Shown: piece by piece, positions 4,139-57,492 of the stretch
Position numbering within the stretch: position 1 is the first letter of the stretch
Layout: each line of letters starts with the position of its first letter
NCBI GenBank assembly: GCA_014360655.1
Contig: JACIXC010000002.1
Span: forward strand, 203,959-267,958
Source of the DNA: Actinomycetota bacterium
GTDB taxonomy: Bacteria > Actinomycetota > Geothermincolia > Geothermincolales > RBG-13-55-18
Length of the DNA: 64,000 bases
Direction of reading: 5' to 3'
Program-made: the position numbers and the translations under genes
The notes under the pieces: generated by a model
Database searches by the model: none
Told to the model about the DNA's origin: nothing
Seen by the model: the letters and a program-made list of their open reading frames with translations, nothing else

Positions 4139-4321
4139 AGAGAAAAGGCCATCGTGGCCGCCACGTACATGCCCTAAGGCTCGGGGGGAAGGCCAGCGCC
4201 AAACGTGCAGGTCCCTGGATAGGCATGGTAAGCGGTTTGCCTTCCCCATGATGGCCGGGGCGGATGGGGCGAAGAGTTGGGCGGTATTGGCGGGGGAGAT
4301 TCCTGTTAATTTTGTCTAATA

Positions 4322-4349
4322 TTGACAACTAGAATTGCTTTTATATATT
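4322..4349 (+). promoter_or_regulatory. Near-consensus sigma70-type promoter ahead of the HTH-pilMNO genes
   Basis: TTGACA (4322-4327), N16, TATATT (4344-4349), inside a strongly AT-rich island (about 4290-4450) in an otherwise ~68% GC context. Confidence 0.45.
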
Positions 4350-4504
4350 CTTTTAATAGTATGTTGGAGATATTAAAAACAGCTAAAGTTTGTTGATGAT
4401 GTTTACGATGAATAATATTGTCTTTTTGCGAGGTGCGCTTTAAGAGGGTATGCGGAAGGAAAGGATGTCGCAAGAGTCGAAGCCAATAAAAGCTTGGAGG
4501 ATAG

Positions 4505-4705
4505 GTGTTGGGGGAGAGTTTCGGCAACAAGTTGTTGACGGTCAACGAAGTGGCTAATATCCTGAGGGTGTCCAACATGACCGTTTACAGGCTGGTGAAG
4601 AGCGGGCAGATACCCGCCATCAGGGTTGGCAAGAATTACCGCATTAAGGAAAGCGACGTGAACGCTTACCTCACCAAGGGAAGCGAGAGGGTGGAGAGAG
4701 GCTGA
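4505..4705 (+). CDS. Small helix-turn-helix DNA-binding protein (excisionase/MerR-like HTH_17 type)
   Basis: 66 aa. LLTVNEVANILRVSNMTVYRLVKSGQIPAIRVGKNYRIKESDVNAYL is the classic excisionase-family HTH signature. SD GGAGGA upstream of the GTG start. Confidence 0.8.
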   Translation: MLGESFGNKLLTVNEVANILRVSNMTVYRLVKSGQIPAIRVGKNYRIKESDVNAYLTKGSERVERG

Positions 4706-4719
4706 TCTCGGGGGGATAA

Positions 4720-12254: not shown

Positions 12255-12324
12255 ACATGTGGCGGGCGAAAAGGAGAGAGCGAGATACGAGAGAATACCG
12301 CACGGCGTGCAGGAGGAGGCGAGC

Positions 12325-15030
12325 ATGATGCGGCGGCTTGGGAGGGTTTTCAAAAATCTCGGTGACGACGCCGGTTTCTCCGTGGCGGAAGTCATGGTGG
12401 CCTTCATCATCCTGGCCTTGGCCCTCATACCCATGGTGAACATGTTCGATTCCGCCTTCCAGGTTTCCGCGGCGGCCACGGACATGAACCTGGCCCAGGA
12501 ATGCTTGCGGCTCTACAGCGAGCGGGTGAAGAACATCCCCTTCTATTATGCCCATTCCGCCGAGGACCAGAGCGTCAAAAAGGACGTAGACGATTTTTAC
12601 TGGGGCTCACGCTCGCCCGTCTACGACAACGGTTTCAGCGATGCGCCCTACGTGGAGATGAAGAGCAGCACGGTGGAGCCTTACAAGGGCATGAAGGTGG
12701 AGATACGCATGGCCTACCTGGACGAGGAACTGGTGAGCGGGAGGACTCTGCAGGAGGCGGCCGACCTCACTGTCCTGGACGAAAACTGGGGCCCCATGAA
12801 GATCTACGGCTACGACCGGCCCATTACCGATACGGGGAAAGCGTTGAACCTGATCCTCTACGAGGTGAGGGTGACGGTGGGCAGCGGCAGACAGTTCACC
12901 TCGACCAACCTTTACGCCTCGCCCACCGACGTGCTTGCCAACGTCTTCATAGACAAGGTGGTGAACGTGGACACGGACGCGAACAAAAAGGGGACGCGTT
13001 ACAACACCTACGGCGACTGCATCAGTGCCCCCCACACGCAGAGCAATATCAAGTTGCGCTTCTACGGCGAGGGCTTTAAGGCGCCGGATCTCGCCTCGGG
13101 GCTGGTGTCGGTGAAGCTGGTGCGCGTGGACGACAACGACATCACCCCGAGCAGCCTGGTGTACGGGGAGGATGCCTGGGGCAGATACCTCGAAGGAACG
13201 GTAACCCTCAACAGCGGGGGGGCCTCCCTGGCGCACAACCCCTGGTCGCCACGGAGGGTCGTCGGAGAATGGGATGCCTTCCTGGTGGTAAACCACGTCA
13301 TCTCCGTGCGCAACAAGGCGTTTGTGGTCGAATACCCCCTGCCGATATTCGGCGGGACCTCCGGTTTTTACGACAGCGACGGGGATCGAAAGGGATTCGA
13401 GAGAACCACCAACGAGGCGCTGTACTTCACGAACGTGGGTTATTTCACCCACATCAAGGCGCCGGAGGGACAGAACCCGGGCATCGGTGCAACCATCCAG
13501 CTCATACACACGCAACTTAATCCACAGACCAATCAGCCTGCGGACATCATCACGGGCACCAATTTCACGTTGACCACGTATACCGACCCCAAGGGCTATC
13601 AGGCATCCGGCCTCGCGGCCAGATGCAACTTCAATTTCGTAGGCCACATCGGCGGATGGTACAAGGTGCGTGTCATCAACTGCATAGACCGTGCCACGCC
13701 GAGCACGGAAGTGAAGGGCAATACCTATATCGATCTCCCCGAGAGCTTCAATTATTACCTCGAGGGACCGCCGGCTATATACGATGCCTATGTGCTGGGT
13801 TACGTGGAAGCCGATGGTTCGTTCACTCCCGTGGCGACATCGCAAAAACGCAATTTCGTATACGATGACCGGCCTTATATGTACAGGATCCGTATCATCG
13901 GCCTGAACTTCGACGAACAGGTCGCCGTCTATTTGGGAGCCGGTTCCGCCGATCCGCCGAACGGGGACAACGTGTTCGAAGCATATGACCGATACCATGT
14001 TGACGAATACACGCTGGACGTCGATTTCAATATCGCTCCAAGTGTGGCTGATGACCAGCGCGGCCTCTACTGGTTATACGCGAAAAACGCCAACGGGTTG
14101 GGAGCGGCCATGAACCCGGCATTCGATATCCGTCGCCCGGCGCCCATCATCTACGGTTACTCGGTCAACACCTACGGGCTGTGGCAGAACTACTACGATG
14201 TGCGGATGACCCTGGAGGGAGAGTGTTTCGACGACAATCCCCTCACTCCGCAAACCGATTTCGAGCTGCGCCTGAGGAAGAACACGGAACCGGCCCCCAC
14301 GGATTACCTGGTGGCCAGTGAGGCCATGGACGAGCCGGTGTCCTCGCTGTCTGGAAGGCGGGTGTCGGCCTCGCTGAACTTCATCGATTGCGACCTGGCG
14401 GAATGGGAACTCTACGGGGTCAATAGTGGCGGCGGGACGGACTCGCGCTACCAGGACGCCATACGCGGGTATGAATACCGTGCCGCTTTTGAAATAAAGC
14501 TGGGTGTTCCCGTGCTCCGAACGGCGGATGTCCCCTCCACGTCGGACCTGTATTCCTTGAAGATCAAAAGCCGTTACCAAGGTTGCGATACAGGGGGTGT
14601 GTGGACGGATTGGAGCGCATGGGACCTGAGCACGGAGGGCGAGCTGACCTATATAGATCCTATGGGACCGGTTCGCAACGCCTGGGCCTGGGAGAACGAC
14701 CCCGATCACGGAACCGTCAACCTTAGAACCAGGGGCGAGATGTATTTCGTGGAAGTCAGGGGCATGGGATTCGAAAAGGGAGGCACACTGAGCGTGCATG
14801 TGAAGAACGACAACGCACCGCCCCATACCGGCATTGACAAGCAGTGGACGGGCTTGCAGGTGAAGGCTAACCGTTCCCAGGCCAGGGTGTGGGTGGAGAT
14901 GGACGAGAGCATGAAATCTGCGAGCGGTCCGGACGAGGGCGGATTTGCGGAGATCAGGTTGCGAAACGACAGCACCGGGACCTGGCAGCCCTGGTACGTT
15001 GATCGCATAGTGTTCAAGAGGGAAGGGTAA
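12325..15030 (+). CDS. Giant modular pseudopilin (PilV/GspI position) with about 860-aa C-terminal extension
   Basis: ATG at 12325 after SD AGGAGGAGG. Prepilin motif DDAG|FSVAEVMVAFIILALAL with Glu+5. Four IPT/TIG-like strand signatures further on: IKLRFYGEGF, YRIRIIGLNF, VRMTLEGECF, YFVEVRGMGF. Confidence 0.8.
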   Translation: MMRRLGRVFKNLGDDAGFSVAEVMVAFIILALALIPMVNMFDSAFQVSAAATDMNLAQECLRLYSERVKNIPFYYAHSAEDQSVKKDVDDFYWGSRSPVYDNGFSDAPYVEMKSSTVEPYKGMKVEIRMAYLDEELVSGRTLQEAADLTVLDENWGPMKIYGYDRPITDTGKALNLILYEVRVTVGSGRQFTSTNLYASPTDVLANVFIDKVVNVDTDANKKGTRYNTYGDCISAPHTQSNIKLRFYGEGFKAPDLASGLVSVKLVRVDDNDITPSSLVYGEDAWGRYLEGTVTLNSGGASLAHNPWSPRRVVGEWDAFLVVNHVISVRNKAFVVEYPLPIFGGTSGFYDSDGDRKGFERTTNEALYFTNVGYFTHIKAPEGQNPGIGATIQLIHTQLNPQTNQPADIITGTNFTLTTYTDPKGYQASGLAARCNFNFVGHIGGWYKVRVINCIDRATPSTEVKGNTYIDLPESFNYYLEGPPAIYDAYVLGYVEADGSFTPVATSQKRNFVYDDRPYMYRIRIIGLNFDEQVAVYLGAGSADPPNGDNVFEAYDRYHVDEYTLDVDFNIAPSVADDQRGLYWLYAKNANGLGAAMNPAFDIRRPAPIIYGYSVNTYGLWQNYYDVRMTLEGECFDDNPLTPQTDFELRLRKNTEPAPTDYLVASEAMDEPVSSLSGRRVSASLNFIDCDLAEWELYGVNSGGGTDSRYQDAIRGYEYRAAFEIKLGVPVLRTADVPSTSDLYSLKIKSRYQGCDTGGVWTDWSAWDLSTEGELTYIDPMGPVRNAWAWENDPDHGTVNLRTRGEMYFVEVRGMGFEKGGTLSVHVKNDNAPPHTGIDKQWTGLQVKANRSQARVWVEMDESMKSASGPDEGGFAEIRLRNDSTGTWQPWYVDRIVFKREG

Positions 15031-15670: not shown

Positions 15671-17941
15671 ATGGCTGAGAGGAAGAAAACGAAAGAGAGT
15701 CACGCGAACGTATGGCGGGGACACGGCCCTGCAGTTTCGCGGGGCGGGGACGAAGGCGGTTTCGCCATGCTCTTCGTCGTGTTCGCCATCATGGTCATCG
15801 GCATCCTCGGGGCTCTGCTCCTGCTCTACACCTCGGTGGCCCTGAGGAACGCGGTGGGCGTTACGCCCGCCTCCCGCGCGCTGGCCGCAGCGGAGACCGG
15901 GCTGGACGTGGCGCATGCGCGCCTGGCGGGGGGGAGCATCGAGGACAGCACGACCATCCCCACCTCCTACCTCTGGGACGGCAAGGGCTCCTACACGGTG
16001 ACGGTCACCAGGAACCCCGACTTCGGCGACGGGGACCCTTATGACTGGAAGATAACCTCGTACGGCGAGTACCGCGCCAACGTGGAGGGGGTGGAGAGGA
16101 CCTATTACCGCACCGTGGAGGAGGTGATCAGCTTCGCGGGCGGCAAGTATTACAACGCCCTGGATTACGTGCTGTTCTCCAAGGAGGGCAAGATAGACAT
16201 GAACATGGACGGGGATCTCAGGGCATTAAACATCACAACTTGCTCCATAAACGGTGATATCTATGCCGGGAAGGACGTGATCGTCTCCAATTCATCTTCT
16301 CTGGTGGGATCGAACAGCTTCAACCTGAACGGCGATATAATAACCGAAAAGGGTGACGTGATCATCAAAAAACGTGCCCGCTTCATAAGCAGCTCGAGCT
16401 TGAACATAAACGGCGACATATACAGCGGCGCAATGGCCTCTTCCGACAGCGATAACGGCGGTGTCCTCATCGAAAACAGGGCTTCCGCGGCGAGCGACGC
16501 AACGACGAACTTGGTAGGCAACATTCATTCGAGAGGGAAGTTAAGCGCAATATGGAACGATTCAAGCTTCACACATGGTGGAAGGGGCGTGAGCCTGTGC
16601 AACGAGATGTCGACTGGAGGCATTTTCTTTAGCCATAGCCTGAAGATCGGCATCACGGGGAACGTCTATTCGATAAGCGATGTAGTCGGAGAAAACAACA
16701 TCAGTGCGAGCCTCAGTTCGTGCAACGTCACCACCGATATCAAGGGTTCGGTCAGCAGCAAGGCGAACGTCACCCTTGACGGGAGCAGCCGGACCGGTAA
16801 TGTCGTAACCTCCCACAATATCAACGGGAGCATTTATTCAGGTAAGGACGTTACGCTTAACGTGAATGCCCATTACGGGGGCGCAGATGGTGGTATCACC
16901 GTGGGGGGGAGCGTTTATTGTGCCGGGAGATTCCAGGCATTGGCTGACAGTAATGCGGCTCTTGGTTCCTCCCGAGCCGCTGTGACAATCGACGGCAGCC
17001 TTTACGCACTGGGTAACGTGAACGTAAATTGTGATGCAGTGGGCTTAATTATTTCTAAAGCACGGTCCCATTTTTACGTGAAAGGTGGAGGCAGCGTCAT
17101 CAATCCTCCAAACCTCGCGGGGGGTTTCTCGTCCGGAGGGGAGATGACCTTACGTGCTTCGGAGTATCTTAACGCCGAGGCCATCCTGTACATGAAGCCG
17201 AACGCCAGGGACAAGACCGCAGACGGCCCGACGATACAGGAGGTGGGCGGAGGTGATGTGCAGGAAGGCACGAAGACGCCGCCGGTCTCCTTCAGCGACT
17301 CCTTGCCCGAGCCGATAGAGCCCCTTTCCTACAACGAAGTGTTGATGCCGCAGTGTGACTTCGCCTACTACGCGGAGGAGGCCAAGGCACAGATGGAGGT
17401 TGACAAAGATCCCCGCCACTATGTCACGGCGCCTCCGGGGGGCGAGTACTCGTTGACCCTCGGGGCGGACGACGTGAAATCGAGTGTATACGTCGTTTTC
17501 TGCAATGGCAACCTACTCATAAACTCGGTGACCGTTCCTGTAAACACCAAGGCCGTGTTGGTGGCAACCGGCAATATCAGGTTAAGGGAACTGTCGAGGC
17601 AGGGAGCCGGCGACGCCGAGTTCCAGATAATCGCCAAGAACAAGTTTTACTATGACGCAAGCGGCAACATGAAGATCGACGACAATGACCGGGTTTTCAT
17701 CTATGCCGCTCATGAGACCTATGACCCGACTACCGACCCGGTCAGCGTGGTCTACGAGATGGGGTGGTTCAAGAACATATACGGGCAGATCACGGCAAGG
17801 GGCGATATAGTACTCAACTCGAGCGGGTCCGCCTTCTCCTGGTTCCCGCTTGCGAATTACTCGATAACATATCGTAACCCGTCGGTGCTGGGTGAGGCGT
17901 TCCGCATCCCCTTCAAGGTGAAATCCTGGAAGGAACTGTGA
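15671..17941 (+). CDS. PilX/GspK-like pseudopilin with large beta-helix-like repeat domain
   Basis: N-terminus DEGGFAMLFVVFAIMVIGILGALLLLY resembles the PilX_N type and lacks Glu+5. About 9 repeats of (I/L)NG(D/S)IY.GKDV-type units. 756 aa. Confidence 0.7.
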   Translation: MAERKKTKESHANVWRGHGPAVSRGGDEGGFAMLFVVFAIMVIGILGALLLLYTSVALRNAVGVTPASRALAAAETGLDVAHARLAGGSIEDSTTIPTSYLWDGKGSYTVTVTRNPDFGDGDPYDWKITSYGEYRANVEGVERTYYRTVEEVISFAGGKYYNALDYVLFSKEGKIDMNMDGDLRALNITTCSINGDIYAGKDVIVSNSSSLVGSNSFNLNGDIITEKGDVIIKKRARFISSSSLNINGDIYSGAMASSDSDNGGVLIENRASAASDATTNLVGNIHSRGKLSAIWNDSSFTHGGRGVSLCNEMSTGGIFFSHSLKIGITGNVYSISDVVGENNISASLSSCNVTTDIKGSVSSKANVTLDGSSRTGNVVTSHNINGSIYSGKDVTLNVNAHYGGADGGITVGGSVYCAGRFQALADSNAALGSSRAAVTIDGSLYALGNVNVNCDAVGLIISKARSHFYVKGGGSVINPPNLAGGFSSGGEMTLRASEYLNAEAILYMKPNARDKTADGPTIQEVGGGDVQEGTKTPPVSFSDSLPEPIEPLSYNEVLMPQCDFAYYAEEAKAQMEVDKDPRHYVTAPPGGEYSLTLGADDVKSSVYVVFCNGNLLINSVTVPVNTKAVLVATGNIRLRELSRQGAGDAEFQIIAKNKFYYDASGNMKIDDNDRVFIYAAHETYDPTTDPVSVVYEMGWFKNIYGQITARGDIVLNSSGSAFSWFPLANYSITYRNPSVLGEAFRIPFKVKSWKEL

Positions 17942-20130: not shown

Positions 20131-20512
20131 CTTACCCGGCGGCCGGGCCGCCGGGTAACGGTCTCGCTCGCAGGCTCGCTGCGACCGACCCTGTAATTCC
20201 CCGGGCTTGCTGGGTGCGTATATGTACTTCTTCCGGCCCGGGGCCTCGGGGTAATGGTCTCGCTCGGCGCCGCGCGCCTTTCCTTCTTCCGGCGGCCGGG
20301 CCGCCGGGTAACGGTCTCGCTCGCAGGCTCGCTGCGACCGACCCGGTCGTTCCCGGCCTTGGTGGTTGCGTATATGTCGTTCTTCCGGCCCGGGGCCTCA
20401 GGGTAACGGTCTCGCTCGGCGCCGCGCGCCTTTCCTTCTTCCGGCGGCCGGGCCGCCGGGTAACGGTCTCGCTCGCAGGCTCGCTGCGACCGACCCGGTC
20501 GTTCCCGGCCTC
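20131..20512. repeat. Tandem GC-rich intergenic repeat, about 2.5 copies of a 152-bp unit
   Basis: Copies begin near 20131, 20286 and 20438. 20286-20358 and 20438-20510 are identical over 73 nt. The 18-nt core GGGTAA(C/T)GGTCTCGCTCG occurs 5 times (20153, 20249, 20306, 20401, 20458). Contains the CGGCGG-ccggg-CCGCCG hairpin. Confidence 0.9.
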
Positions 20513-21502: not shown

Positions 21503-22057
21503 GTGAGCGAATCCCATCCCTTCGGCAGGCGTACGCTGGCCAGGAAGCTGGCCTGCGATATCCTTTACCAGGCGGACCTTACCGGGGAAGACCTTGACTC
21601 CGTGGTGGAGGGTTTCCGGCGCATGCTGGAAGAGGGGATAGAGGAGAACCCGACCCCTCCCGACGGCATCCCCGACATATCCATGGAGAGGGTGCACCTC
21701 CTTCTCGGCGACGAGGCGCGGATAGAGGAACTGTCCTCCTTCGGCTCGGAGAGCCTGCTCTACCCGCCTGAGATCCCCGTTTTCTCCCTGGACCTCGTGG
21801 ATCTTTACCTCGAGCACCGTGAGGAGATAGACGGGCTTATCGACTCCTACGCGGACCGCTGGTCGCTGGAACGCATGCCCATGGTCGACCGCAACCTCCT
21901 GCGCCTGGGGTTCGCGGAGCTCCTCTACCGTGAGGACATCCCCACCAACGTCACTATCAACGAGTACGTGGAGCTGGCCAAGGCCTTCTCGACCGAGGAT
22001 TCCGGTAAGTTCGTCAACGGGGTGCTGGGGAGGCTTTACCGGGACCGCCTGGCTTAG
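21503..22057 (+). CDS. nusB: Transcription antitermination factor NusB (with internal insertion)
   Basis: GTG start abutting the asp23 stop. ARKLACDILYQ... and ...DRNLLRLGFAELLY..IP..V.INEYVELAK.F....SGKFVNGVLG. At 184 aa it is longer than the usual ~140 aa. Confidence 0.9.
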   Translation: MSESHPFGRRTLARKLACDILYQADLTGEDLDSVVEGFRRMLEEGIEENPTPPDGIPDISMERVHLLLGDEARIEELSSFGSESLLYPPEIPVFSLDLVDLYLEHREEIDGLIDSYADRWSLERMPMVDRNLLRLGFAELLYREDIPTNVTINEYVELAKAFSTEDSGKFVNGVLGRLYRDRLA

Positions 22058-22106
22058 ATACACAAGGGTCGGGGCACGCCTTATGGCTGATGGGCGCGTG
22101 TCTTTG

Positions 22107-22432
22107 CTTCTTGCGGCGGCCGGGCCGCCGGGTAACGGTCTCGCTCGCAAGCTCGCTGCGACCGGCCCTGTGGTTCCCCGGGATGGGTGGTTGCATAAAG
22201 AGGCCGGGCCGGGGGCTCGTGCTCACTCCGCGACGCGCGGCCTCGTGATGGGTAATTCCCTTCCTCCGGGTAATCCCTCACTTTAAAGGGGACACTTCGC
22301 CAGGGCCATGATGGAGGCCGCTTGCGATGTCGTTCGCCCGACCCCCGGACCCGGCCTGGGTGGGTGGTTCAGTAAAGGCTCGCTGCGACCGGCCCTGTGG
22401 TTCCCCGGGCTTGGTGGGTGGAAATAAGGAGG
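22107..22432. repeat. Dispersed, diverged copies of the same repeat family as 20131-20512
   Basis: 22107-22202 carries CTTCTTGCGGCGGCCGGGCCGCCGGGTAACGGTCTCGCTCGCAAGCTCGCTGCGACCGGCCCTGTGGTTCCCCGGG. The core GGCTCGCTGCGACCGGCCCTGTGGTTCCCCGGG recurs at about 22375-22410. Both clusters end with GGAAATAAGG(G/A). Confidence 0.75.
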
Positions 22433-22595: not shown

Positions 22596-22603
22596 GGGAT
22601 AGA

Positions 22604-22635
22604 CCTTTAAACCAGTCCCGTGAGGCTGGCAAGGG
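22604..22635 (+). promoter_or_regulatory. PyrR-binding RNA loop (pyr attenuator)
   Basis: CCTTTAAACCAGTCCCGTGAGGCTGGCAAGGG resembles, as recalled, the PyrR binding-loop pattern (CCUUUAA..CAGUCC.GAGAGGCUG..AAGG), with stem CCUUU/AAGGG and inner stem CCAG/CUGG. Confidence 0.75.
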
Positions 22636-22661
22636 AAAAAGGAGAATAAGCGTGAAAGGAG

Positions 22662-22693
22662 ACCTTCCTGCGCCGGCCGCAGGAAGGTTTTTT
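22662..22693 (+). terminator. Attenuator terminator of the pyr leader
   Basis: ACCTTCCTGCG-ccggc-CGCAGGAAGGT followed by TTTTT, 9 nt before the pyrR start. Confidence 0.85.
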
Positions 22694-22695
22694 AA

Positions 22696-23253
<558 letters not shown>

Positions 23254-23280: not shown

Positions 23281-23469
23281 CGGGAGGCCGGGGCATGCGT
23301 GAGAGCGGGAAGACGGGAGCGGTATGGAGATGCAGCGAGAGGAAGGCGGACGGGAGCATGAGCGGGTGGTGTGCGGGAGGAGGCCCGGCATATCCGCCGG
23401 CCGGGGCGGAGAAGGGCGCGGGACGGCCGGTGCCGTCGCCCGGGGTGAGCGGTGACACGGAGGTATCCC

Positions 23470-24405
23470 ATGGCCGTTAGGGGCCATCTACTGGACGTGG
23501 ACGACCTGGATAAGGAGGACCTGGAACGGATTCTGGAGATGGCCCACTCCTTTTCCGAGGTTCTGCGCAGGCCCATCAAGAAGGTCCCCGCCCTGCGGGG
23601 CAAGACGGTGGTCAACCTGTTCTACGAACCATCCACCCGCACCCGACTCTCCTTCGAGGTGGCCGCGAAGAGCCTGAGCGCCGACGTGCTGAACTTCACC
23701 GCCTCCGCCTCAAGCGTGGAGAAGGGCGAGAGCCTGAAGGACACCGCCCTCACCCTGCGTGCCATGGGGGTGGATGCCGTGATCGTGCGCCATCCCGTGG
23801 CGGGAGCCCCCTGGCTGCTGAGGAAGTGGCTTGACGTGACGGTGATCAACGCCGGGGACGGCATGCACGCACACCCCACCCAGGCGCTGCTCGACATCTT
23901 CACCATGCGGGAACGGCTGGGAGACCTGGAAGGACTTACCATCGCCTACGTGGGGGACATCCTGCATTCCCGCGTGGCGCGCTCGGGCATGAAAGCCTGC
24001 AGGGCGGCGGGCATGCGGGTCTTGGCGGTGGCGCCTCCCACCCTGCTGCCGCCCTCCATGCCCGGCGACGTCGAGGTGTCGCATTCCTTCGACGAGGTGA
24101 TACCACGTTGCGACGTGCTCTACATGCTGCGCATACAGAAGGAGAGACAGCAGGAGGCGAGGTTCCCCAGCCTGGAAGAATATGCCAGATGTTACCAGTT
24201 GAACATGGAGCGCATGCGCAGGGCGAAGCCGGGGGTGGTGGTGATGCACCCCGGACCGGTGAACCGGGGGGTGGAGATCTCCTCCGAGGTGGCTGACGCG
24301 CCGCACGCGGCGATAAACTCGCAGGTGTCCTCCGGGGTGGCGGTGCGCATGGCCGTTCTCTTCCTGCTCCTGGGGGGAGCGGAAGGAGGTGGCGCCCTTG
24401 CCTGA
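23470..24405 (+). CDS. pyrB: Aspartate carbamoyltransferase catalytic subunit
   Basis: ATG at 23470 after SD GGAGG (the ORF-track start at 23452 is an alternative). STRTR, HPTQ and the HPGP-type C-terminus. Confidence 0.95.
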   Translation: MAVRGHLLDVDDLDKEDLERILEMAHSFSEVLRRPIKKVPALRGKTVVNLFYEPSTRTRLSFEVAAKSLSADVLNFTASASSVEKGESLKDTALTLRAMGVDAVIVRHPVAGAPWLLRKWLDVTVINAGDGMHAHPTQALLDIFTMRERLGDLEGLTIAYVGDILHSRVARSGMKACRAAGMRVLAVAPPTLLPPSMPGDVEVSHSFDEVIPRCDVLYMLRIQKERQQEARFPSLEEYARCYQLNMERMRRAKPGVVVMHPGPVNRGVEISSEVADAPHAAINSQVSSGVAVRMAVLFLLLGGAEGGGALA

Positions 24406-25720
24406 CATACTCATAAGGGGCGCGCGGCTCATGGACCCCTTCCTCGGGAGGGACGAGACCCTTGATGTTCTTGTCTCCAGGGGGCGCGTGGCCGAGATGG
24501 GGAAGGGCATCCCCGCGGAGGGGCGCGAGGTGATAGGCGCGGAGGGCATGATACTGGCTCCGGGTTTCCTGGACATACACGTGCACCTGCGGGAGCCGGG
24601 AAGGGAGGACGAGGAGACGCTGGAGAGCGGGCTGGCCGCGGCGCTGCGGGGAGGCTTCACGGCCGTCTGTTGCATGCCGAACACGGAACCGCCCCTGGAC
24701 AATGCCGCGCTGGTGGAGGAGCTGGCGCTCAAGGCCGTGAAACTGGGCCTCGCGGACCTTTTCCCCGTGGGCTGCGTCACGCGGGGAAGGGAGGGCCGCG
24801 AGCTGGCAGAGATGGGGTTGATGCACCTCAGCAGGGCGCGGGTGAGGGCCTTCTCCGACGACGGCGACGGCATCGAGGACGCCGGGCTCATGAGGCGCGC
24901 GCTGGAGTACGTAAAGGGCTTCGACGGGATCATAGTATCCCATCCCGAGGACCGCGGGCTTTCGCGGGGCGGCCAGGTGAACGAGGGAGAGGTCTCCTTC
25001 GCCCTCGGACTGCGCGGCATGCCCGCACTCGCGGAGGAGGTCATGGTGGCGCGTGACCTGCTGCTGGCCGAGGAAACGGGGGCACGTCTCCACCTCGCCC
25101 ACGTCAGCACCGCCAGGTCGCTGCGCATGGTAAGGGATGCCAAGGCGCGCGGAGTGAGGGTGACTGCGGAGGTGACCCCGCATCACCTGGTGCTCAGCGA
25201 GATGGACATAAGGGATTACGATACCGTGTTCAAGGTGAACCCACCCCTGCGCACCCCTGAAGACGTGAAGGAGCTGCGCCGCGCCCTGCTGGATGGAACG
25301 GTGGACGCTGTTGCGAGCGACCACGCTCCCCATGCCCCGCAGGAGAAGGAACGCGAATTCGAGTACGCTCCCTTCGGTGTGGTGGGGATGGAGAGCGCCT
25401 TCCCCGTGCTCCACACCGAGCTGGTAGAGAGCGGCGAGCTGCCGCTCATGAGGTTGCTGGAACTCCTCACCCGGGGGCCGGCGGAGGTCATGGGCCTGCA
25501 CGCGCCGGAATACGGGGGAGGGATAGAGGTGGGGAGCCGTGCCGACCTGGTGCTCATCGATACGGAGCGGGAGTGGGTCCTGGACGCGACGGTCTTCGTG
25601 TCCAAGGGGAGGAACTGCCCCTTCCACGGCCGCAGGGTTAAGGGCAGGGTGGTGTTGACGCTGAAGAACGGCAAGGTGGCGTATGCCGTTCCCGATATGG
25701 GGGGTGGCGCCGGTGGTTAG
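24389..25720 (+). CDS. pyrC: Dihydroorotase
   Basis: 443 aa with DIHVHLREPG, ...ASDHAPH... and the amidohydrolase fold. Overlaps pyrB by 17 nt. Confidence 0.95.
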   Translation: MAPLPDILIRGARLMDPFLGRDETLDVLVSRGRVAEMGKGIPAEGREVIGAEGMILAPGFLDIHVHLREPGREDEETLESGLAAALRGGFTAVCCMPNTEPPLDNAALVEELALKAVKLGLADLFPVGCVTRGREGRELAEMGLMHLSRARVRAFSDDGDGIEDAGLMRRALEYVKGFDGIIVSHPEDRGLSRGGQVNEGEVSFALGLRGMPALAEEVMVARDLLLAEETGARLHLAHVSTARSLRMVRDAKARGVRVTAEVTPHHLVLSEMDIRDYDTVFKVNPPLRTPEDVKELRRALLDGTVDAVASDHAPHAPQEKEREFEYAPFGVVGMESAFPVLHTELVESGELPLMRLLELLTRGPAEVMGLHAPEYGGGIEVGSRADLVLIDTEREWVLDATVFVSKGRNCPFHGRRVKGRVVLTLKNGKVAYAVPDMGGGAGG

Positions 25721-28700
25721 GGATCGTGTGGCGCTGGTGGTGGGCCCCGGGCCCGTCACCCTGCAGGAGGGCACGTGCGTGCAGTACATGGCGGCGAGGT
25801 TATGCCGCTACCTGCACGAAAGGGGCTACCGCGTGGTGGTGCTCGAGGATAACCCGGCTACCCTCATGGATGCCTGGGAGGAGGTGGAGGGTATCTACGT
25901 GGAGCCGCCCCTTCCGGAGGTTGTCTTGCAGGCGGCGGAGAAAGCGGGGGCCGCATCCGTGTGGCTGGGCATGGCGGGGAGAAGGGGATGGGAGCTTTTC
26001 AAGGCGTTGGCGGCGGAGGGGGCGCCGGAAAGGCTCGGCATCTCCGTGCCCGATGTTGATGACCGTGTCCTCTGGCTCTGCGGAGACCGGGGGCTGCTGC
26101 GCGAGACGCTGGAAGAGAGGGGTTTCTCGAACCCCGCCTTTCGCTCCGTGGACAGCGTGCACGAGGGGCAGAGGGCGGCGGCGGAGCTGTCCTTTCCTCT
26201 TGTTGTGAGACCCCATTTCTCCTGTGGAGGATGGGGAGCCGGTATCGCCTACAACGGCGAGGAACTGCCGGCCGTGCTGGAAGAGGCCCTCAGGGAGAGC
26301 CCCGCCGGCGAGGCGCTCGTGGAGGAGTCCCTTGCGGGGTACCGTAAATACGTGGTGGTACTTCTGCGCGACGCGGACGGTGAGTGCCGGGTCGCCGGCA
26401 CTTGCGAGCAGCTCGAGCCCCTTCCCCTGCACGAGGAGGACGCCGTGCTGGTCGTGCCGCCCGCGACCGCTGACGAGGGGGTCTACGCGCTGCACGAGGC
26501 GGCGCGTGAGGCGGCGGATGCCCTCGGTCTGGTAGGGGTCGCGGAGGTGAAGATCGCGGTATCGGCCGGGTGGGAGGACCTATATGTCCTGGACGTCAAT
26601 CCGCGCCCCTGGCGCACAACGCCCCTCGTCGAGGTGGCTCTGGGGAGGGACCTGTTGAGGACGCATCTCGACCTGTTGCTCGGCGGAGGGCACGCGGCAG
26701 GGTCGCTCGCATCGCCGCAGGGGCCGAGAGGGGTCATCGTCTCCCTGCCCCGCTTCTTCTACGCCGAGGAAGAGGGGGAAGGGTGTATACATCTGCGTTG
26801 CCGGGCGGTCGGCAGGACCATCCTCGCGGGGAAGACGACGGAGGAAGCCGCCGCCGCGGCGCTCCGCTATCTCGTCCTGGAGGGGCGTGGCAAGGGATGG
26901 GGGGAAGGATGGTTGCGGAGCACGGAAGGGCTCCTGTCGGCGCTTTTGCATCGACCTGCCGCGTACCGGCGGAGGTCTGGCGGCACGGTGGCGGGCGGCG
27001 GTTTTCTGCCGCCCCGTGCGGGTGCGCCTGACGTCCCGGAGGAAGCACCGGCAGCAGGCGGGGTTACGGGAGGCCGTTACGAAGGTACGGTAGAAGGGTG
27101 CGGCGACACCGGACCCGGCACGGTAGGCGGAGCTCAGGTAGAAAGTCGCATGGAAGCTCTTTCCGGCAGCCCCCCATCGCGCGGTTATCCCCTGTGCCTG
27201 GTCCGCAGGCCGGCGGGCGCTCCCGGCGAGGGGAAAAGGGGGATCATGGTCCTGGGTGGGGACAACGGCGTTCCCGGGGGAGGACACGAAAGAAACTTCG
27301 CCGCCCTGCGGGCGGCGCTGACGGCGGCAAGGAACGGGATAGCGGCTTCTCTCTATGCTTGTGATGCCTCCTTCGCGCTGCTGGCGGTGGAGGCGGTGGA
27401 CGCGGTTTTCCTGGGGCCCCTTTCGCCTGGAGGGGTCGTGGAGGCCGTGAGAGGGGCGGCAGCGGACGCCCTCTGCTGCCAGTTCGCGGGAGAGGAAGGC
27501 CTGCGCTGCGGCGTGGCCGTCCGGGAGGGAGGCGAGGGGGTCGCCCTCCTCGAGCAGGAGGTCGCCGCTCCCGAAGACACGGGCCTCGCACAGTGGGCGC
27601 ACCGGGGGGTGAGGACGGTGCCCTTCGCCGCGGGCCGCGGTGAGGCGCGCGCTTTTCTGAAAAGGTGCGCGTTCCCGGTGCTCGCGGACGCGGCGCCGCC
27701 CGGCGGACCGGCGCGCCGCCGCATCATCTTCAGCGAGGAGGAGGGGGAGGGATTCCTCTCGCGGTGCGGCGATGACCGCGTTCTCCTGCGGCAGCTCAGC
27801 GAGGAGGCGCAGGAGGTGCTGGTGGAGGCGGTGGCCGCGCACGGGGAGGCGCGGGCCCTACTGATATGGGAAAAGCTGGAAGATAAGGGGACGGCTTCCA
27901 GTGAAGGCCTTGCCGTCTTTCCGCCCCTTCACCTGACCTCGCACCAGGCGGAAGCGGCGGAAAGACTCGCGCGCGAGGTGATCTCGCGCCTTCCCTGGAG
28001 GGGCAACCTCTCCATGCGCATGCTGATTGCAGACGGCGACGCTCTCCTCCTGGATATCACGCCGGGCGCATCGCGCGAGACGCCCTTCCTCGCGCGCGCG
28101 TCCGGTCTGCCGCTGCCGGAGATGGGGATGGAGGCATTGCTCGGAAAGGGGGAGGCGCGACTGCCTGCGCGCGAGGATGCATGCGCCTGGAGATGCCCGG
28201 AAACGCCGCTGGGCATCATCGCAGCAGAGGATATCATTCCCGAGGCGGGGGAACGTTCCACGGGCTCCCGCGTGGTTATGGCGAAGAATATCTCGCTGGC
28301 GCTGGCGAAGTTGCACGTGGCGCAGGGGATACTGCCGCGACCCGGTGGAAGGGTCTTCCTGAGCGTCGCCGACCGCGAGAAGAGGCGCGTGGTCCTCCTG
28401 GCACGCGAGCTCCGCGAGGCGGGCTACCGCCTGGCCGCGACGAGGGGGACGGCACGGACCCTGAAGGCGGCGGGTATGCCGGTCAAGGTGGTCAACAAGC
28501 TGCAGGAGGGACGGCCCAACGCGCTGGACCTCATGCGCAACGGCGAGATACAGCTGGTGATAAACGTGCCGCGCGGGAGGAAGCCCAAGAGCGACGGGTT
28601 CTATATCAGGGAGGACGCCGCGCGCCATGGCATCCCCTGCATTACCGACATGGAGGTCGCCATGGCCCTGGTGCGTGGGCTGCGTGTCTGCGGTGCAGCG

Positions 28701-28772
28701 GGGTGGGACATGGACATGTGCGGTACGCTCCTTCCGGGAACCTGCCTGGCGGAGGGGGCGGGAGGGAAGTGA
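25683..28772 (+). CDS. Carbamoyl-phosphate synthase large-subunit homolog with degenerate ATP-grasp motifs (possible pseudoenzyme); exact start uncertain
   Basis: 1029-aa intact ORF in the carB/pyrAB position. Recognisable CarB architecture (RPHFSCGGWGAGIAYN, LDVNPRPWRTTP, second half IMVLGG...DITPGASRETPF). Well-conserved C-terminal MGS-like domain (VFLSVADREKRRVVLLARELREAGYRLAATRGTARTLKAAGMPVKVVNKLQEGRPN). Confidence 0.75.
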   Translation: MPFPIWGVAPVVRDRVALVVGPGPVTLQEGTCVQYMAARLCRYLHERGYRVVVLEDNPATLMDAWEEVEGIYVEPPLPEVVLQAAEKAGAASVWLGMAGRRGWELFKALAAEGAPERLGISVPDVDDRVLWLCGDRGLLRETLEERGFSNPAFRSVDSVHEGQRAAAELSFPLVVRPHFSCGGWGAGIAYNGEELPAVLEEALRESPAGEALVEESLAGYRKYVVVLLRDADGECRVAGTCEQLEPLPLHEEDAVLVVPPATADEGVYALHEAAREAADALGLVGVAEVKIAVSAGWEDLYVLDVNPRPWRTTPLVEVALGRDLLRTHLDLLLGGGHAAGSLASPQGPRGVIVSLPRFFYAEEEGEGCIHLRCRAVGRTILAGKTTEEAAAAALRYLVLEGRGKGWGEGWLRSTEGLLSALLHRPAAYRRRSGGTVAGGGFLPPRAGAPDVPEEAPAAGGVTGGRYEGTVEGCGDTGPGTVGGAQVESRMEALSGSPPSRGYPLCLVRRPAGAPGEGKRGIMVLGGDNGVPGGGHERNFAALRAALTAARNGIAASLYACDASFALLAVEAVDAVFLGPLSPGGVVEAVRGAAADALCCQFAGEEGLRCGVAVREGGEGVALLEQEVAAPEDTGLAQWAHRGVRTVPFAAGRGEARAFLKRCAFPVLADAAPPGGPARRRIIFSEEEGEGFLSRCGDDRVLLRQLSEEAQEVLVEAVAAHGEARALLIWEKLEDKGTASSEGLAVFPPLHLTSHQAEAAERLAREVISRLPWRGNLSMRMLIADGDALLLDITPGASRETPFLARASGLPLPEMGMEALLGKGEARLPAREDACAWRCPETPLGIIAAEDIIPEAGERSTGSRVVMAKNISLALAKLHVAQGILPRPGGRVFLSVADREKRRVVLLARELREAGYRLAATRGTARTLKAAGMPVKVVNKLQEGRPNALDLMRNGEIQLVINVPRGRKPKSDGFYIREDAARHGIPCITDMEVAMALVRGLRVCGAAGWDMDMCGTLLPGTCLAEGAGGK

Positions 28773-29569
28773 GCCTGCCGGCGCGATACATTGCAACCGT
28801 TCTGGAGAGAAGGGATTACGGTTGCGCCAGCGAGCTGGTGTTCGCTGTCCCCGGGGATTTCGATCCGCAGCCCGGACAGTTCGTGCACGTATTGTGCGGG
28901 GACCGCGGGCGCATACTGAGGAGGCCCTTCAGTGTCTTCGACCGCGGGGAGGGAACGGCCTCCATCCTGGTGAGGGAGGCGGGAGCCGGCTCGTCGTGGT
29001 TGCGGGGCAGGGCGGAAGGGGAACGCCTGGACCTGCTGGGGCCCCTGGGGAGGGGCTTCTACACGGCGAAGCAGGAAATGAGCCTACTGGTGGCAGGAGG
29101 CGTGGGGATAGCGCCGCTCCATTTCCTTGCGAGGCGCCTGCGGCGGGCGGGAAAGCCCTTCCTGGTGGCCTGGGGGATGGAAAGTGCGGAGGAATTCGCG
29201 GGGCTTCCCGGCATCCTCGCGCGGGAGTTCGATCTGCGCATCGCATGCATGGACGGAGGAGCGGGGCCGGCGCGCTCCGCGGTTGATCTCGCATGTGGGA
29301 TGCATGACTGGCTCGAGGCGACGGTATACGCCTGCGGGCCGCGGGCCATGCTCGTAGCGCTGGCCGCCAGGGTGGCGGACGCGCAGGAGGGGGGGCTGGC
29401 GCGCCTGCAGGTGAGCGTGGAGGAGAGGATGGCCTGCGGGCTGGGGGTATGCCGTGGCTGTGCCGTTCCGGCCGCACGGCCGCCGGGCTCTTACCTGGCC
29501 GCGTGCAGCGACGGGCCCGTGTTCGGGGGAGATGAGCTGGATTGGGAGCGCATGGCGGCGTTGACCTGA
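28769..29569 (+). CDS. pyrK: Dihydroorotate dehydrogenase (class 1B) electron-transfer subunit PyrK
   Basis: GTG at 28769 in a GTGA overlap with the carB-like stop (the long upstream in-frame extension from 28181 is rejected). RRPFS FAD motif, GGVGIAP, and the C-terminal 2Fe-2S Cys cluster CGLGVCRGCAV...C. Confidence 0.85.
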   Translation: MSLPARYIATVLERRDYGCASELVFAVPGDFDPQPGQFVHVLCGDRGRILRRPFSVFDRGEGTASILVREAGAGSSWLRGRAEGERLDLLGPLGRGFYTAKQEMSLLVAGGVGIAPLHFLARRLRRAGKPFLVAWGMESAEEFAGLPGILAREFDLRIACMDGGAGPARSAVDLACGMHDWLEATVYACGPRAMLVALAARVADAQEGGLARLQVSVEERMACGLGVCRGCAVPAARPPGSYLAACSDGPVFGGDELDWERMAALT

Positions 29570-30483
29570 GGGTGGAACTGGGCGGGATCACCCTGCGGAA
29601 CCCCGTGCTGGTGTGCTCGGGCACCTTCGGGAACGGCAGGGAGATGGCTGCGTGGATGGACGTGAAGGAGCTGGGCGGGGTGATGACCAAGGCGGTGACC
29701 CTCGCTCCCTGCGCGGGGAACCCGCCGCCACGCGTCTGGGAGACGCCCTCGGGCATGCTCAACGCCATCGGGCTTGAGAACAAGGGGCTGGAGAGGTTCC
29801 TCGCCGAGGACCTCCCCTGGCTGAACGCCATGCAGGTGCCGGTGTGGGTGAACGTGGCGGGCTTCACGCGGGAGGAGTACGTGGAGGTGTCGCGCGAGGT
29901 GTCCCGCTCCGGGTTGGCCTCCGCCCTGGAACTGAACATATCCTGCCCCAACGTGAAAAAGGGAGGATTGCACTTCTCGGCCGAAAAGGGCGAGGCGGCG
30001 CGCCTGGTGAGCGAGGTTAAGGAGGTGTCCGAGATACCCGTGTACGTGAAGCTATCGCCGAACACGGGCGATATCGCGGGGTTCGCCGGGGCCATGGTGC
30101 GGGCGGGGGCTGACGGCATAAGCCTCATCAACACCATCCCGGCCATGGCCGTCGACGTGGAGACGGCGCGCCCGCGCCTGGGGAACGTCACCGGGGGACT
30201 GTCAGGGCCCGCCGTGCACCCGGTGGCCGTGCGCATGGTGTGGGAGGTGGCTCAGGCGGTCGACGTGCCCATCATAGGCATGGGCGGTATCTGGAGCTGG
30301 ATGGACGCGGCCGAGATGCTCATGGTAGGGGCGGACGCGGTTGCCGTCGGCACCCTCAACTTCAGGGACCCGGCGGCCGCCCTGGGCGTGGTGGAGGGAC
30401 TGGCGTCTTTCATGCTCAGGAAGGGATACCGCAGGGTGGGCGACATGGTGGACCTCGTGCATCGCGGGCGGGACATGCCGTGA
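29542..30483 (+). CDS. pyrD: Dihydroorotate dehydrogenase, class 1B catalytic subunit
   Basis: 313 aa with LRNPV..CSGTFG, GLENKG, NISCPNV (catalytic Cys) and GGI motifs. Confidence 0.95.
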   Translation: MGAHGGVDLRVELGGITLRNPVLVCSGTFGNGREMAAWMDVKELGGVMTKAVTLAPCAGNPPPRVWETPSGMLNAIGLENKGLERFLAEDLPWLNAMQVPVWVNVAGFTREEYVEVSREVSRSGLASALELNISCPNVKKGGLHFSAEKGEAARLVSEVKEVSEIPVYVKLSPNTGDIAGFAGAMVRAGADGISLINTIPAMAVDVETARPRLGNVTGGLSGPAVHPVAVRMVWEVAQAVDVPIIGMGGIWSWMDAAEMLMVGADAVAVGTLNFRDPAAALGVVEGLASFMLRKGYRRVGDMVDLVHRGRDMP

Positions 30484-30604
30484 CGCCGGGGGGAAGGCGC
30501 GGAGCGCAGGGTCTTTCCGCCGCCGCGTCGCGTGGGGAGGGCATGGTTTCGCCGCTTGTGAGCGGGGACCCGGCGGAGACGTCGATTTGCAGGAAGGTGC
30601 AAGG

Positions 30605-31321
30605 ATGGCAAGGGTTGAAGACCCCTTCATACTGGCCCTGGATACCGGAGACAGGGAGCGGCTGCTGAGCCTGGCGCGCATCATGCGGGGCGAGGTGGCG
30701 ACGGTGAAGGTAGGCCTGGAGGCCTACACGCGCTGCGGGCCGGAGATACTTGTCGCGATGAAAGGAGCCGGTTACCGCGTCTTCGCCGACCTGAAGCTGC
30801 ACGACATCCCCAACACGGTGCGGGGTGCGGCGGCCGCGCTTGCCGAACTCGAGGTGGACATGTTCACCGTGCACGTGTGCGGCGGCAGGAAGATGCTGGA
30901 AGGGGCCGTGGAGGCCGCGCGGAAGGCGGCGCGGAAAAGAGGAACGGGAAAACCGCTTGTCCTCGGGGTGACGGTGCTCACCAGCCTGGATGAGGCGGGG
31001 CTGCGCGAGGCGGGCTGGGCGGGAGGCATGGAGGAAACGGTCCTGCGCATGGCCACCCTGGGATGGGAGTGCGGCCTGGACGGCTTCGTGTGCTCACCCC
31101 TCGAGTTGCGGGCGTTGCGCGAGGCGCTAGGCGGTGAGCCCCTCCTCGTGGCCCCGGGCATCAGGTTGCCGGGAGCGGAGAAACATGACCAGGCGCGCAC
31201 GGCGACGCCGCGGGAAGCCATGGAGGCCGGAGCGGATTACCTGGTGGTGGGGAGGTCGGTCACCTCGCATGCCGACCCGAGGGAGGCCATGAGGTCGCTG
31301 CGGCGCGCCGCAGGGACGTGA
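30605..31321 (+). CDS. pyrF: Orotidine 5'-phosphate decarboxylase
   Basis: ATG at 30605 (MARVEDPFILALD...) within ORF 30341-31321. DLKLHDIPNT motif, and PGIRL...DQ.R at the C-terminus. Confidence 0.9.
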   Translation: MARVEDPFILALDTGDRERLLSLARIMRGEVATVKVGLEAYTRCGPEILVAMKGAGYRVFADLKLHDIPNTVRGAAAALAELEVDMFTVHVCGGRKMLEGAVEAARKAARKRGTGKPLVLGVTVLTSLDEAGLREAGWAGGMEETVLRMATLGWECGLDGFVCSPLELRALREALGGEPLLVAPGIRLPGAEKHDQARTATPREAMEAGADYLVVGRSVTSHADPREAMRSLRRAAGT

Positions 31322-31436
31322 CGACGATGGGGAGGGAGGTTTATGAGGGGGCCGCAGCCGGGCATATAGAACATGTCGGGGCGGCCTGCGGGACGCATGA
31401 CGCCGCACGCGAGCGGAAGGAAGGGAGGAGCGGGCG

Positions 31437-32009
31437 ATGAACCAGTGGGAGGTGCTGGAGATACTGGAGCGAGAGGGCGCCGTGCAGAAGGGGCATTTCC
31501 TCCTCTCCTCGGGGCTGCACAGCGATACCTACGTGCAGTGCGCGAAGGTCCTGCAGTTCCCGAACCTTGCGGAGAGCCTGGCGAGGGAGATGGCGGGCGA
31601 GGCGGAGGAGCTCCGGCCGGAGCTGGTGATAAGTCCCGCCATGGGAGGCATCATCATCGGGTACATGGTGGCGCTGGCCCTGCGCAAGCGCATGGTTTTC
31701 GCCGAGAGGCAGGAGGGGCGCCTGACCCTGCGCCGCGGTCAGCAGGTGCACGAGGGGGAGAGGGCGATCATAGTGGAGGACGTCATAACGACCGGAGGCT
31801 CTGTGCTGGAGATCATGGAGCTGGTGCGGGAGCAGGGGGGCGAGGTGGTGGGCCTGGAGGCGATCATAGAGCGCGGAGACGACCGCGATTTCGGCGTGCC
31901 CAAGAAGGTGCTCCTGAGGCTGGATGCCCCGGTGTGGGAGGCGGCGGAGTGCCCCCTGTGCGCCCGGGGGTTGCAGTTGGAAATACCTGGCAGCAGGAGG
32001 CTGGAGTGA
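31437..32009 (+). CDS. pyrE: Orotate phosphoribosyltransferase
   Basis: 190 aa. GHFLLSSGLHS and the PRPP motif AIIVEDVITTGGS. Confidence 0.95.
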   Translation: MNQWEVLEILEREGAVQKGHFLLSSGLHSDTYVQCAKVLQFPNLAESLAREMAGEAEELRPELVISPAMGGIIIGYMVALALRKRMVFAERQEGRLTLRRGQQVHEGERAIIVEDVITTGGSVLEIMELVREQGGEVVGLEAIIERGDDRDFGVPKKVLLRLDAPVWEAAECPLCARGLQLEIPGSRRLE

Positions 32010-32119
32010 AAGGGGCGGCACGCCGCGAGCGCCTGGCTCGATGGCTTGTTTGCAGGTAAAAGGCGGTTTATACTTGTATGGACCATTGAGGTTAGGGTTT
32101 CGAACGGAGGAGGGATGAA

Positions 32120-35029: not shown

Positions 35030-35117
35030 GTCGGAGTGGCGGAATCGGTAGACGCGCTAGGTTGAGGGCCTAGTGAGGAGCTTCCTCATGGGGGTTCAAG
35101 TCCCCCCTCCGACACCA
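35030..35117 (+). tRNA. tRNA-Leu (anticodon GAG), type II with long variable arm, CCA encoded
   Basis: Acceptor stem GTCGGAG/CTCCGAC. Anticodon arm CTAGG-TTGAGGG-CCTAG. Variable arm GAGGA-GCTT-TCCTC. T arm GGGGG-TTCAAGT-CCCCC. Discriminator A plus CCA. Confidence 0.95.
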
Positions 35118-57443: not shown

Positions 57444-57461
57444 GCACGGGGAAGAATGGGC

Positions 57462-57492
57462 GGGAGGCCGCAAGGCCTCCCGTTTCCCTTTT
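57462..57492 (+). terminator. Rho-independent terminator after the ACAD pair
   Basis: GGGAGGCC-gcaa-GGCCTCCC followed by GTTTCCCTTTT. Confidence 0.75.

Follow-up and report, generated by a model that had tools for sequence, protein, structure and literature searches.

The stretch of DNA analysed here, referred to as the window, comprises 64 kb of an Actinomycetota genome (assembly GCA_014360655.1, contig JACIXC010000002.1, positions 203,959 to 267,958), and its subject of interest is a carB-like gene that occupies the slot of the carbamoyl-phosphate synthase (CPS) genes in a pyrimidine (pyr) operon. Annotation with Pfam and Rfam gives the operon order as a PyrR-binding leader, pyrR, pyrB, pyrC, the carB-like open reading frame (ORF), pyrK, pyrD and pyrF, all on the forward strand, the whole lying between the leader and gmk. 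The leader RNA (22600–22696) scores 56.5 bits for Rfam family RF00515, whose gathering score is 54. It is followed by pyrR (22702–23253; Pfam Pribosyltran and UPRTase, 76–94% identity across relatives), pyrB encoding aspartate carbamoyltransferase (ATCase; 23452–24405; OTCace_N and OTCace) and pyrC encoding a type I dihydroorotase in which the DIHVH metal motif is present (24389–25720; Amidohydro_1 and DHOase). Downstream of the carB-like gene are pyrK (28769–29569; DHODB_Fe-S_bind), pyrD (29542–30483; DHO_dh, 1.5e-77) and pyrF (30341–31321; OMPdecase, 1.9e-53); in the pyrF ORF the OMPdecase domain opens only at residue 95, which makes a start downstream of 30341 probable. Pfam annotation reveals no pyrE in the operon, and tblastn with E. 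coli CarA and CarB as queries detects neither carA nor a second carB in the 64 kb; outside the operon the window is also devoid of carA, arcC and arg genes. The genes upstream of the operon (aroC/B/Q, pepQ, efp and nusB) and downstream of it (mIHF, gmk and coaBC) form the conserved actinobacterial setting in which carA-carB normally lie. An earlier note on this DNA had read the operon as a Bacillus-like pyrR-pyrB-pyrC-[carA-carB]-pyrK-pyrD-pyrF-pyrE array lacking carA; the order and the carA gap are borne out, the terminal pyrE is not.

The carB-like frame is open, as the note had stated for an ORF of 25683–28772. Translation from the ATG at 25683 would give 1029 residues, but in relatives and in the database gene call the start is at a GTG at 25713 (VVRDRVALVV...), which yields a protein of 1019 residues (25713–28772). 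Either candidate start overlaps the pyrC stop codon (25718–25720), and the stop of the carB-like gene overlaps the pyrK start in the sequence GTGA; both overlaps had been noticed before. The guanine-plus-cytosine content at third codon positions (GC3) is 0.80 compared with 0.53 at second positions (GC2), as in the adjoining genes. The carB-like gene shares a transcript and translational coupling with pyrC and pyrK, downstream of the PyrR-controlled leader, and from what is known of this leader family the entire operon, carB relic included, falls under pyrimidine-responsive PyrR control.

To describe the protein we used phmmer alignment to E. coli CarB (5.6e-91) and a MAFFT alignment with 47 family members and 12 canonical CarBs; residues are given in E. 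coli CarB numbering, where the count from Met1 agrees with that of the literature. The N-terminal pre-ATP-grasp and ATP-grasp unit (residues 1–400 of the protein, 25713–26912) has a family conservation of 0.65–0.86 and retains the nucleotide-contact residues R129, R169, G175/176/178, E208, H243 and D246; N301 and R306 are also retained in the window protein. The ligands for metal and K+ are swapped in a nearly uniform manner, with E215K in 46 of the 47 family members and N283E, Q285K and E299D in every one, and R303 is variable (Arg in 21, Gly in 11 and Trp in 7 of these Solincola-type proteins). The carboxyphosphate-site set of R129, R169, E215, N283, Q285, E299, N301, R303 and R306 is invariant (9/9) in the 12 canonical CarBs, and the window protein does not have it. 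The pattern points to an N-terminal ATP-grasp that is altered rather than simply eroded. The second ATP-grasp unit (residues 494–860, 27192–28292) is degenerate: its fold is modelled with confidence while its ATP site is lost, as R571, R675, R715, the Gly loop, H788, N827, Q829, N843, R845 and R848 are all replaced. E761 is kept, E841 is kept in part, and many positions of this site vary within the family. A carbamate-phosphorylating active site is therefore not recognisable in the C-terminal unit, and the ATP-grasp superfamily hallmarks (R129, R169, GGxG, E208 and H243) are found in the N-terminal unit only, the C-terminal one having the fold alone. These formal alignments bear out every motif loss listed in the earlier note, among them IGQACEFDYSG to LQEGTCVQYMA, HTGDS to HEEDA, NVQFAV to EVKIAV and the replacement that reads LDVNPRPWRTT in the N-terminal unit, and IGQGIEFDY to PGGGHERNF in the second, together with a motif that has no counterpart and one that has lost its Asn and Arg.

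The two tunnels of the enzyme appear to have fared no better. Following the E. coli literature, E25, E383, E604, E916 and R848 are taken to line the carbamate tunnel and E217, E219, C232, T249, A251 and A311 the ammonia tunnel; all of them are replaced in the CarB-like protein, several by bulky hydrophobic or aromatic residues, and sampling of this list gives 0/9 kept in the window protein versus 8–9/9 in most canonical sequences. Between the two units, residues 417–489 (26961–27179) form a disordered linker rich in Gly, Ala, Pro and Arg, with a predicted local distance difference test score (pLDDT) below 50 and a gappy, poorly conserved alignment. This is the low-complexity replacement of the oligomerisation linker that had been described from the translation: the family median is 56 residues (range 22–121) against 155 in canonical CarB, two thirds of the oligomerisation domain are gone and PF02787 is not matched. 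The MGS-like allosteric domain (residues 875–1000, 28335–28712; Pfam MGS, 1.6e-22) is the most conserved part of the protein; the note had called it well conserved. Its pocket for uridine or inosine monophosphate (UMP/IMP), consisting of S948, K954, T974, T977, K993, N1015 and T1042, is invariant (7/7) in all 51 family sequences. Conservation across the family peaks at the Gly-rich lid of the N-terminal unit and in the allosteric domain and reaches its minimum in the linker. Constraint on the relic is strongest in this nucleotide pocket and, within one ATP-grasp site, at the lid and the contact residues.

Comparison with domain and family models, which the earlier note had proposed as a check, agrees with the residue mapping. 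Pfam returns one CPSase_L_D2 match (100 bits), the MGS match (80 bits) and an ATP-grasp match on the N-terminal unit, with no D3 (PF02787) and no second CPSase_L_D2. The protein falls short of both NCBIfam CarB equivalog cut-offs, NF003671 and TIGR01369 (324.5 bits vs 599 and 310.5 vs 1027), and NCBI names its relatives "ATP-binding protein" or "ATP-grasp domain-containing protein". The family alignment was used to build an AlphaFold2 model, which reaches a predicted template modelling (TM) score of 0.85 and a mean pLDDT of 79.6, mostly above 85 in the N-terminal unit, with residues 417–489 disordered. Foldseek finds a full-length match to E. coli CarB (PDB 1JDB; TM 0.80, 21% identity) and next to human CPS1, and biotin carboxylases match one unit only. 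The model thus predicts that the whole CarB fold is kept apart from the oligomerisation domain. The MGS-like domain with its UMP/IMP pocket and the overall fold are those of CarB, yet none of the sequence criteria for a CPS that were tested here identifies the relic as one.

The family is old and conserved. A protein search yielded 47 clusters of 917–1020 residues with 42–68% identity, the named ones belonging to Candidatus (Ca.) Solincola or unclassified Actinomycetota. A synteny scan of one genome per GTDB species, in which carA was looked for within ±10 kb, found the arrangement pyrC-[carB-like gene of ~950–1000 codons]-pyrK in ~20 species, including four Ca. Solincola, Ca. Geothermincola primus and secundus and unnamed relatives; no carA lies within that distance in any of them. 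Neither the window nor these ~20 relatives provide the adjacent carA that goes with a CarB, and the earlier note had named a carA beside the same gene in close relatives as the observation that would speak against its reading. Other Actinomycetota have pyrC-carA-carB-pyrK at the same place, with a CarB of 1100 residues and complete sets of catalytic residues (14/14 and 12/12). Solincola and Geothermincola both belong to the class Geothermincolia. The Geothermincola-type proteins, 29–35% identical to the window protein, keep E215 and have lost N301, R303 and R306, so that their pocket reads E215, E283, E/G285, E/G299, F/H/L/V301, G303 and Q306. Since this group is degenerate in a different way, catalysis was probably lost before the two groups split, each later settling on a pocket of its own.

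Several lines of evidence indicate that the gene is under selection. The frame is intact in ~50 clusters spanning 29–68% identity, with no frameshifts seen, and no indels or frame-breaking variants of the relic were detected in four sequencing runs. The ratio of nonsynonymous to synonymous substitution rates (dN/dS) of the relic is 0.15–0.24 in the closest pairs, compared with 0.18–0.28 for pyrK and 0.06–0.10 for pyrB; by part, it is 0.03–0.16 in the allosteric domain and 0.15–0.25 in the degenerate C-terminal unit. Measured against PyrC, the relic diverges ~1.7x faster than canonical CarB. Together with the GC3 signal, the dN/dS values, both proposed as checks in the note, describe a constrained, coding-like gene, and residue loss, intact frame, purifying selection and deep-clade conservation, the marks of a pseudoenzyme, occur here together. 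A very recent pseudogenisation, the alternative that the note had left standing, is ruled out by the class-wide occurrence of the same carA-less degenerate gene, the lack of frameshifts and the dN/dS values.

The pyrB product keeps its carbamoyl-phosphate motifs STRTR and HPTQ, and a source of carbamoyl phosphate is therefore needed. A CarA protein search aimed at a Geothermincolia carA listed only close relatives of the query, and papers on Geothermincolia and Solincola yielded nothing on carAB, one stating only that arginine biosynthesis genes are present. We therefore matched contigs from sequencing runs to canonical carA-carB reference loci at 80% likeness, using two DNA metagenomes of an oil-production facility (X2 and X3) and a metatranscriptome of the X2 sample (X4); the resulting evidence covers the window organism, which is dominant in X2 (word depth ~1700–2460) and X3 (~3500–5350). 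Actinobacterial references (L018 and L015) retrieved only pieces of carA at the organism's depth, and no carB. These pieces lie on two X2 contigs, one of 6907 nt (depth 2292) and one of 5842 nt (2059), on a 2349-nt contig of X3 (4242) and on RNA contigs with depths of 28–38; GICLGHQ is intact, and the pieces translate to bona fide CarA (...FNTGMTGYQEILTDPSY...YPLIGNYGVN and ...FGICLGHQLLGLALGG...GHRG.NQPVKDL...). With an Anaerolineales reference (L042), the 5842-nt X2 contig was seen to run from carA straight into a canonical carB, which starts MPKRTDIRK and is covered by three further matches. One of the reconstructed carB matches has E299, N301, R303 and R306 intact, and the sequence recurs in X3 (depth 4806) and in the RNA (depth 73). 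The possibility that the relic is the partner of a lone carA, without a canonical carB, was dropped when L042 showed carB on this same contig.

The depths of these contigs follow those of the window organism: 2059–2292 vs 1711–2463 in X2, 4242–4806 vs 3534–5354 in X3 and 28–73 vs 18–160 in the RNA of X4. Their X3/X2 ratio of 2.1–2.3 equals that of the window organism and we therefore assign the carAB genes to it; another canonical carB in X3 has a depth of ~1300–1800 but only ~12 in X2, and must belong to a different organism. The window organism thus very probably bears a canonical, transcribed carA-carB elsewhere in its genome, so the relic, called an orphan in the earlier note, is one within its operon and very probably not within its genome. 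With a canonical carAB present the organism does not depend on the relic for carbamoyl phosphate, and of two copies the relic is most plausibly the resident one that was displaced. The better fit to the Anaerolineales than to the actinobacterial reference is a weak hint that the carAB pair may be a foreign acquisition. Alternative routes of carbamoyl-phosphate supply are known in Thermococcus (PMC13260591); carbamate kinase or arginine catabolism as the sole source became unnecessary here once the canonical carAB was found. The relic itself is covered by X4 contigs of depth 18–50, near the values for pyrC and pyrD, with DNA carry-over in the RNA library being possible.

On balance we favour the view that the gene encodes a CarB-derived pseudoenzyme under PyrR control that is kept as a nucleotide-sensing regulator or scaffold, a function that we infer from residue loss, purifying selection and the conserved allosteric domain. 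These same features make the catalytically dead CPS in a regulatory or scaffolding role, which the earlier note had put forward, the most reasonable reading of the sequence. We envision that the ORF descends in place from an actinobacterial pyr-operon carB and that, on the branch from which the class Geothermincolia arose, the partner carA was deleted and CPS catalysis was lost, carbamoyl phosphate being supplied by the separate canonical carA-carB elsewhere in the genome. The relic itself was retained, its N-site nucleotide contacts preserved and its UMP/IMP pocket unchanged. The pseudoenzyme would be produced only under pyrimidine scarcity; its allosteric pocket would bind a pyrimidine or purine nucleotide, and its N-terminal site perhaps ATP or ADP. 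Through protein–protein contacts it might act on the active CPS, in a manner common among dead paralogs, or on the PyrB-PyrC complex, regulating or channelling heat-labile carbamoyl phosphate into the pyrimidine branch. Thermophiles are known to channel this heat-labile intermediate (review PMC6022934). A bolder and more tentative version, which we regard as possible but doubtful, is that the protein is a PyrR-induced adaptor on the single active CPS, on PyrB-PyrC or on both, reading UMP/IMP and, in a thermophile, dividing heat-labile carbamoyl phosphate between the arginine and the pyrimidine pathway, and that it represents one of a widespread and overlooked class of CarB-derived pseudoenzymes.

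Four points weigh against the regulator or scaffold interpretation or the evidence for it. The assignment of carAB to the genome is an indirect one, from depth co-variation and GC3-rich codons; dS is near saturation (0.9–1.3) for most pairs; the list of tunnel and ligand residues, which was taken from the E. coli literature, is backed here only by invariance in 12 canonical sequences; and the near-invariant K215, E283, K285 and D299 of the Solincola-type proteins, for which salt bridges K285–D299 and K215–E283 filling the former metal sites are proposed, could instead form a new catalytic site. The last point leads to the idea of a neo-functionalised enzyme, in which the N-terminal ATP-grasp would carry out a new ATP-dependent reaction, or a nucleotide-dependent and metal-independent one, under regulation by the allosteric domain, with the C-terminal unit serving a structural purpose only. 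In its favour are the high conservation of the N-terminal half with its peak at the Gly-rich lid, the retained ATP contacts and the fixation of the four substituted residues in 46–47 of the 47 proteins, the last being what a working pocket would show. However, the pocket of the Geothermincola-type proteins differs, so no single new chemistry is conserved family-wide, R303 varies even among the Solincola-type proteins, and there is neither a new domain nor a new adjoining gene to hint at a substrate; we consider a new activity rather unlikely.

The retained ATP contacts of the N-site could also be those of a residual or unorthodox CPS specific for pyrimidines, using free ammonia or a CarA acting in trans, with the N-terminal unit performing both phosphorylations in an oligomer. 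The gene does occupy the place of carB in an operon with a PyrB that continues to require carbamoyl phosphate, carA is very probably present in the genome, and isolated CPS halves reportedly perform the whole reaction (Guy and Evans, 1996). Yet other residues stand in for the metal and K+ ligands, R303 varies or is missing, the Geothermincola-type proteins are without N301, R303 and R306, both tunnels are without their invariant lining as judged from the residues listed above and the C-site is without ATP-binding residues; moreover, the carA that was detected directly precedes its own canonical carB. Residual synthase activity is thus very unlikely. The faster evolution relative to neighbouring genes, the low-complexity linker of variable length and the stop and start codons shared with adjoining genes would all suit a gene that has no function and is slowly decaying, kept because its removal would upset the translational coupling of the operon. 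That explanation is strongly disfavoured by a frame that is intact in ~50 clusters as divergent as 29–68% identity, low dN/dS in all structured parts and lowest in the allosteric domain, seven invariant pocket residues and a fold predicted with confidence. A CarB-derived pseudoenzyme serving as nucleotide-sensing regulator or scaffold remains the reading that we prefer.

Other features of the window are recorded here as observations in their own right. Between pyrF and the actinobacterial IHF gene is a conserved ORF (31373–32059, forward strand, ~190–228 residues) without a Pfam or NCBIfam match, which has a counterpart at the same position in many relatives (39–58% identity). A metatranscriptome contig (depth 337) joins opposite strands at 31989–32052, between this ORF and the IHF gene, and could reflect either a hairpin or terminator structure or an error of assembly. 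Downstream of coaBC there is a tRNA gene (35030–35114, forward strand; Rfam RF00005, 55 bits). The window contains three copies (20178–20205, 22155–22182 and 22382–22409) of a short GC-rich intergenic repeat, GCTGCGACCGGCCCTGTGGTTCCCCGGG, where 0 are expected by chance. The metagenome word depth of the bin 22000–22383 is ~50x that of its flanks (114,889 vs ~2,300 in X2) and several contig joints fall within 22100–22430, a region that looks like a highly multi-copy small element. Four large ORFs with coding-like GC3 match no NCBIfam family: 12259–15030 (forward, 923 residues), 15671–17941 (forward, 756 residues), 43800–46184 (reverse, 794 residues) and 57456–60557 (forward, 1033 residues). The first two belong to a type IV pilus cluster, and the sole match of the last is a weak local one to the PvdQ acylase model.

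To look beyond the Geothermincolia, we ran a profile search over 1.84 billion cluster representatives followed by residue mapping. Outside the relic family, ~60 of the top 129 hits (50%-identity clusters, P0189–P0326) have a degenerate N-site, C-site or both with an intact allosteric pocket, a proportion that is not a frequency as cluster representatives over-sample divergent lineages. Canonical loci scored 13–14/14 and 12/12 in the same mapping, so misalignment is unlikely to explain these degenerate proteins. They have 1000–1075 residues, retain the oligomerisation domain, keep an allosteric pocket of the form SKTTKNT or TKTTKNT and fall into one loose group of 40 and smaller groups. When a profile was built from 40 other degenerate CarB-like proteins, its consensus reverted to canonical CarB and returned CarBs of Desulfobacterales. 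Three that were inspected are stand-alone genes with no adjacent carA or pyr genes, one of them in a CtsR-ClpC context. Unlike the relic, proteins of this type (for example P0192, P0214 and P0199) still have the oligomerisation domain and match Pfam D2 twice, are encoded away from pyr operons among unrelated genes, and are closer to canonical CarB (35–48% identity) than to the relic family. The pattern suggests that CarB duplicates have repeatedly lost catalysis while retaining the allosteric domain.

CPS is a textbook channelling and allosteric enzyme, and our full-text literature searches found no description of a dead, conserved CPS large subunit. The finding is surprising for specialists in this enzyme, and it is testable. 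If the relic regulates or scaffolds pyrimidine synthesis as proposed, it would provide a new control over the sharing of carbamoyl phosphate between pathways, and CPS would join the enzymes that spawn regulatory pseudoenzymes. Automated annotation labels some members of the relic family "carbamoyl-phosphate synthase large subunit", and such labels would mislead metabolic reconstructions of Geothermincolia and of other lineages with degenerate CarB-like genes.

Compared with canonical CarB (E. coli; PDB 1JDB, 1BXR and 1CE8), the relic shares the fold of two pre-ATP-grasp/ATP-grasp units with an MGS-like domain, has UMP/IMP-pocket residues identical to those of the E. coli protein and occupies the operon slot of the canonical CarB of other Actinomycetota. 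Unlike canonical CarB, it has no adjacent carA, its C-site, N-site metal and K+ and tunnel residues are replaced, its oligomerisation domain is about one third of the usual size and disordered, and it scores below the NCBIfam cut-offs. Bacillus subtilis, with pyrAA/pyrAB in the pyr operon and carAB in the arg operon, resembles the relic's host in having one CPS large-subunit gene in a PyrR-controlled pyr operon and a second carAB elsewhere; there, however, both copies are active with small subunits of their own, whereas here the pyr-operon copy has lost carA and apparently catalysis. Prozymes such as the trypanosomatid S-adenosylmethionine decarboxylase (AdoMetDC) prozyme are dead paralogs that regulate active counterparts. 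Within the CPS family, human CPS1 retains an inactive glutaminase-like domain (PMC4655335). In both, as in the relic, catalytic residues have been lost, the fold and the ligand or interaction surfaces are selected and an active unit coexists. The relic differs from prozymes in that a heteromer with the active CPS is hypothetical, and it is without the oligomerisation domain, which in E. coli CPS provides one of two tetramer interfaces. PyrC' of Pseudomonas ATCase and the dihydroorotase-like domain of yeast Ura2 are inactive homologs of pyrimidine enzymes kept as structural or regulatory partners; these also have lost catalysis while a separate active copy does the chemistry. They belong to another protein family, and for PyrC' the partner, ATCase, and the requirement for it have been shown experimentally, whereas the partners named for the relic are candidates. 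By analogy, the relic may be regarded as a metabolic pseudoenzyme akin to PyrC', the inactive dihydroorotase found with Pseudomonas ATCase.

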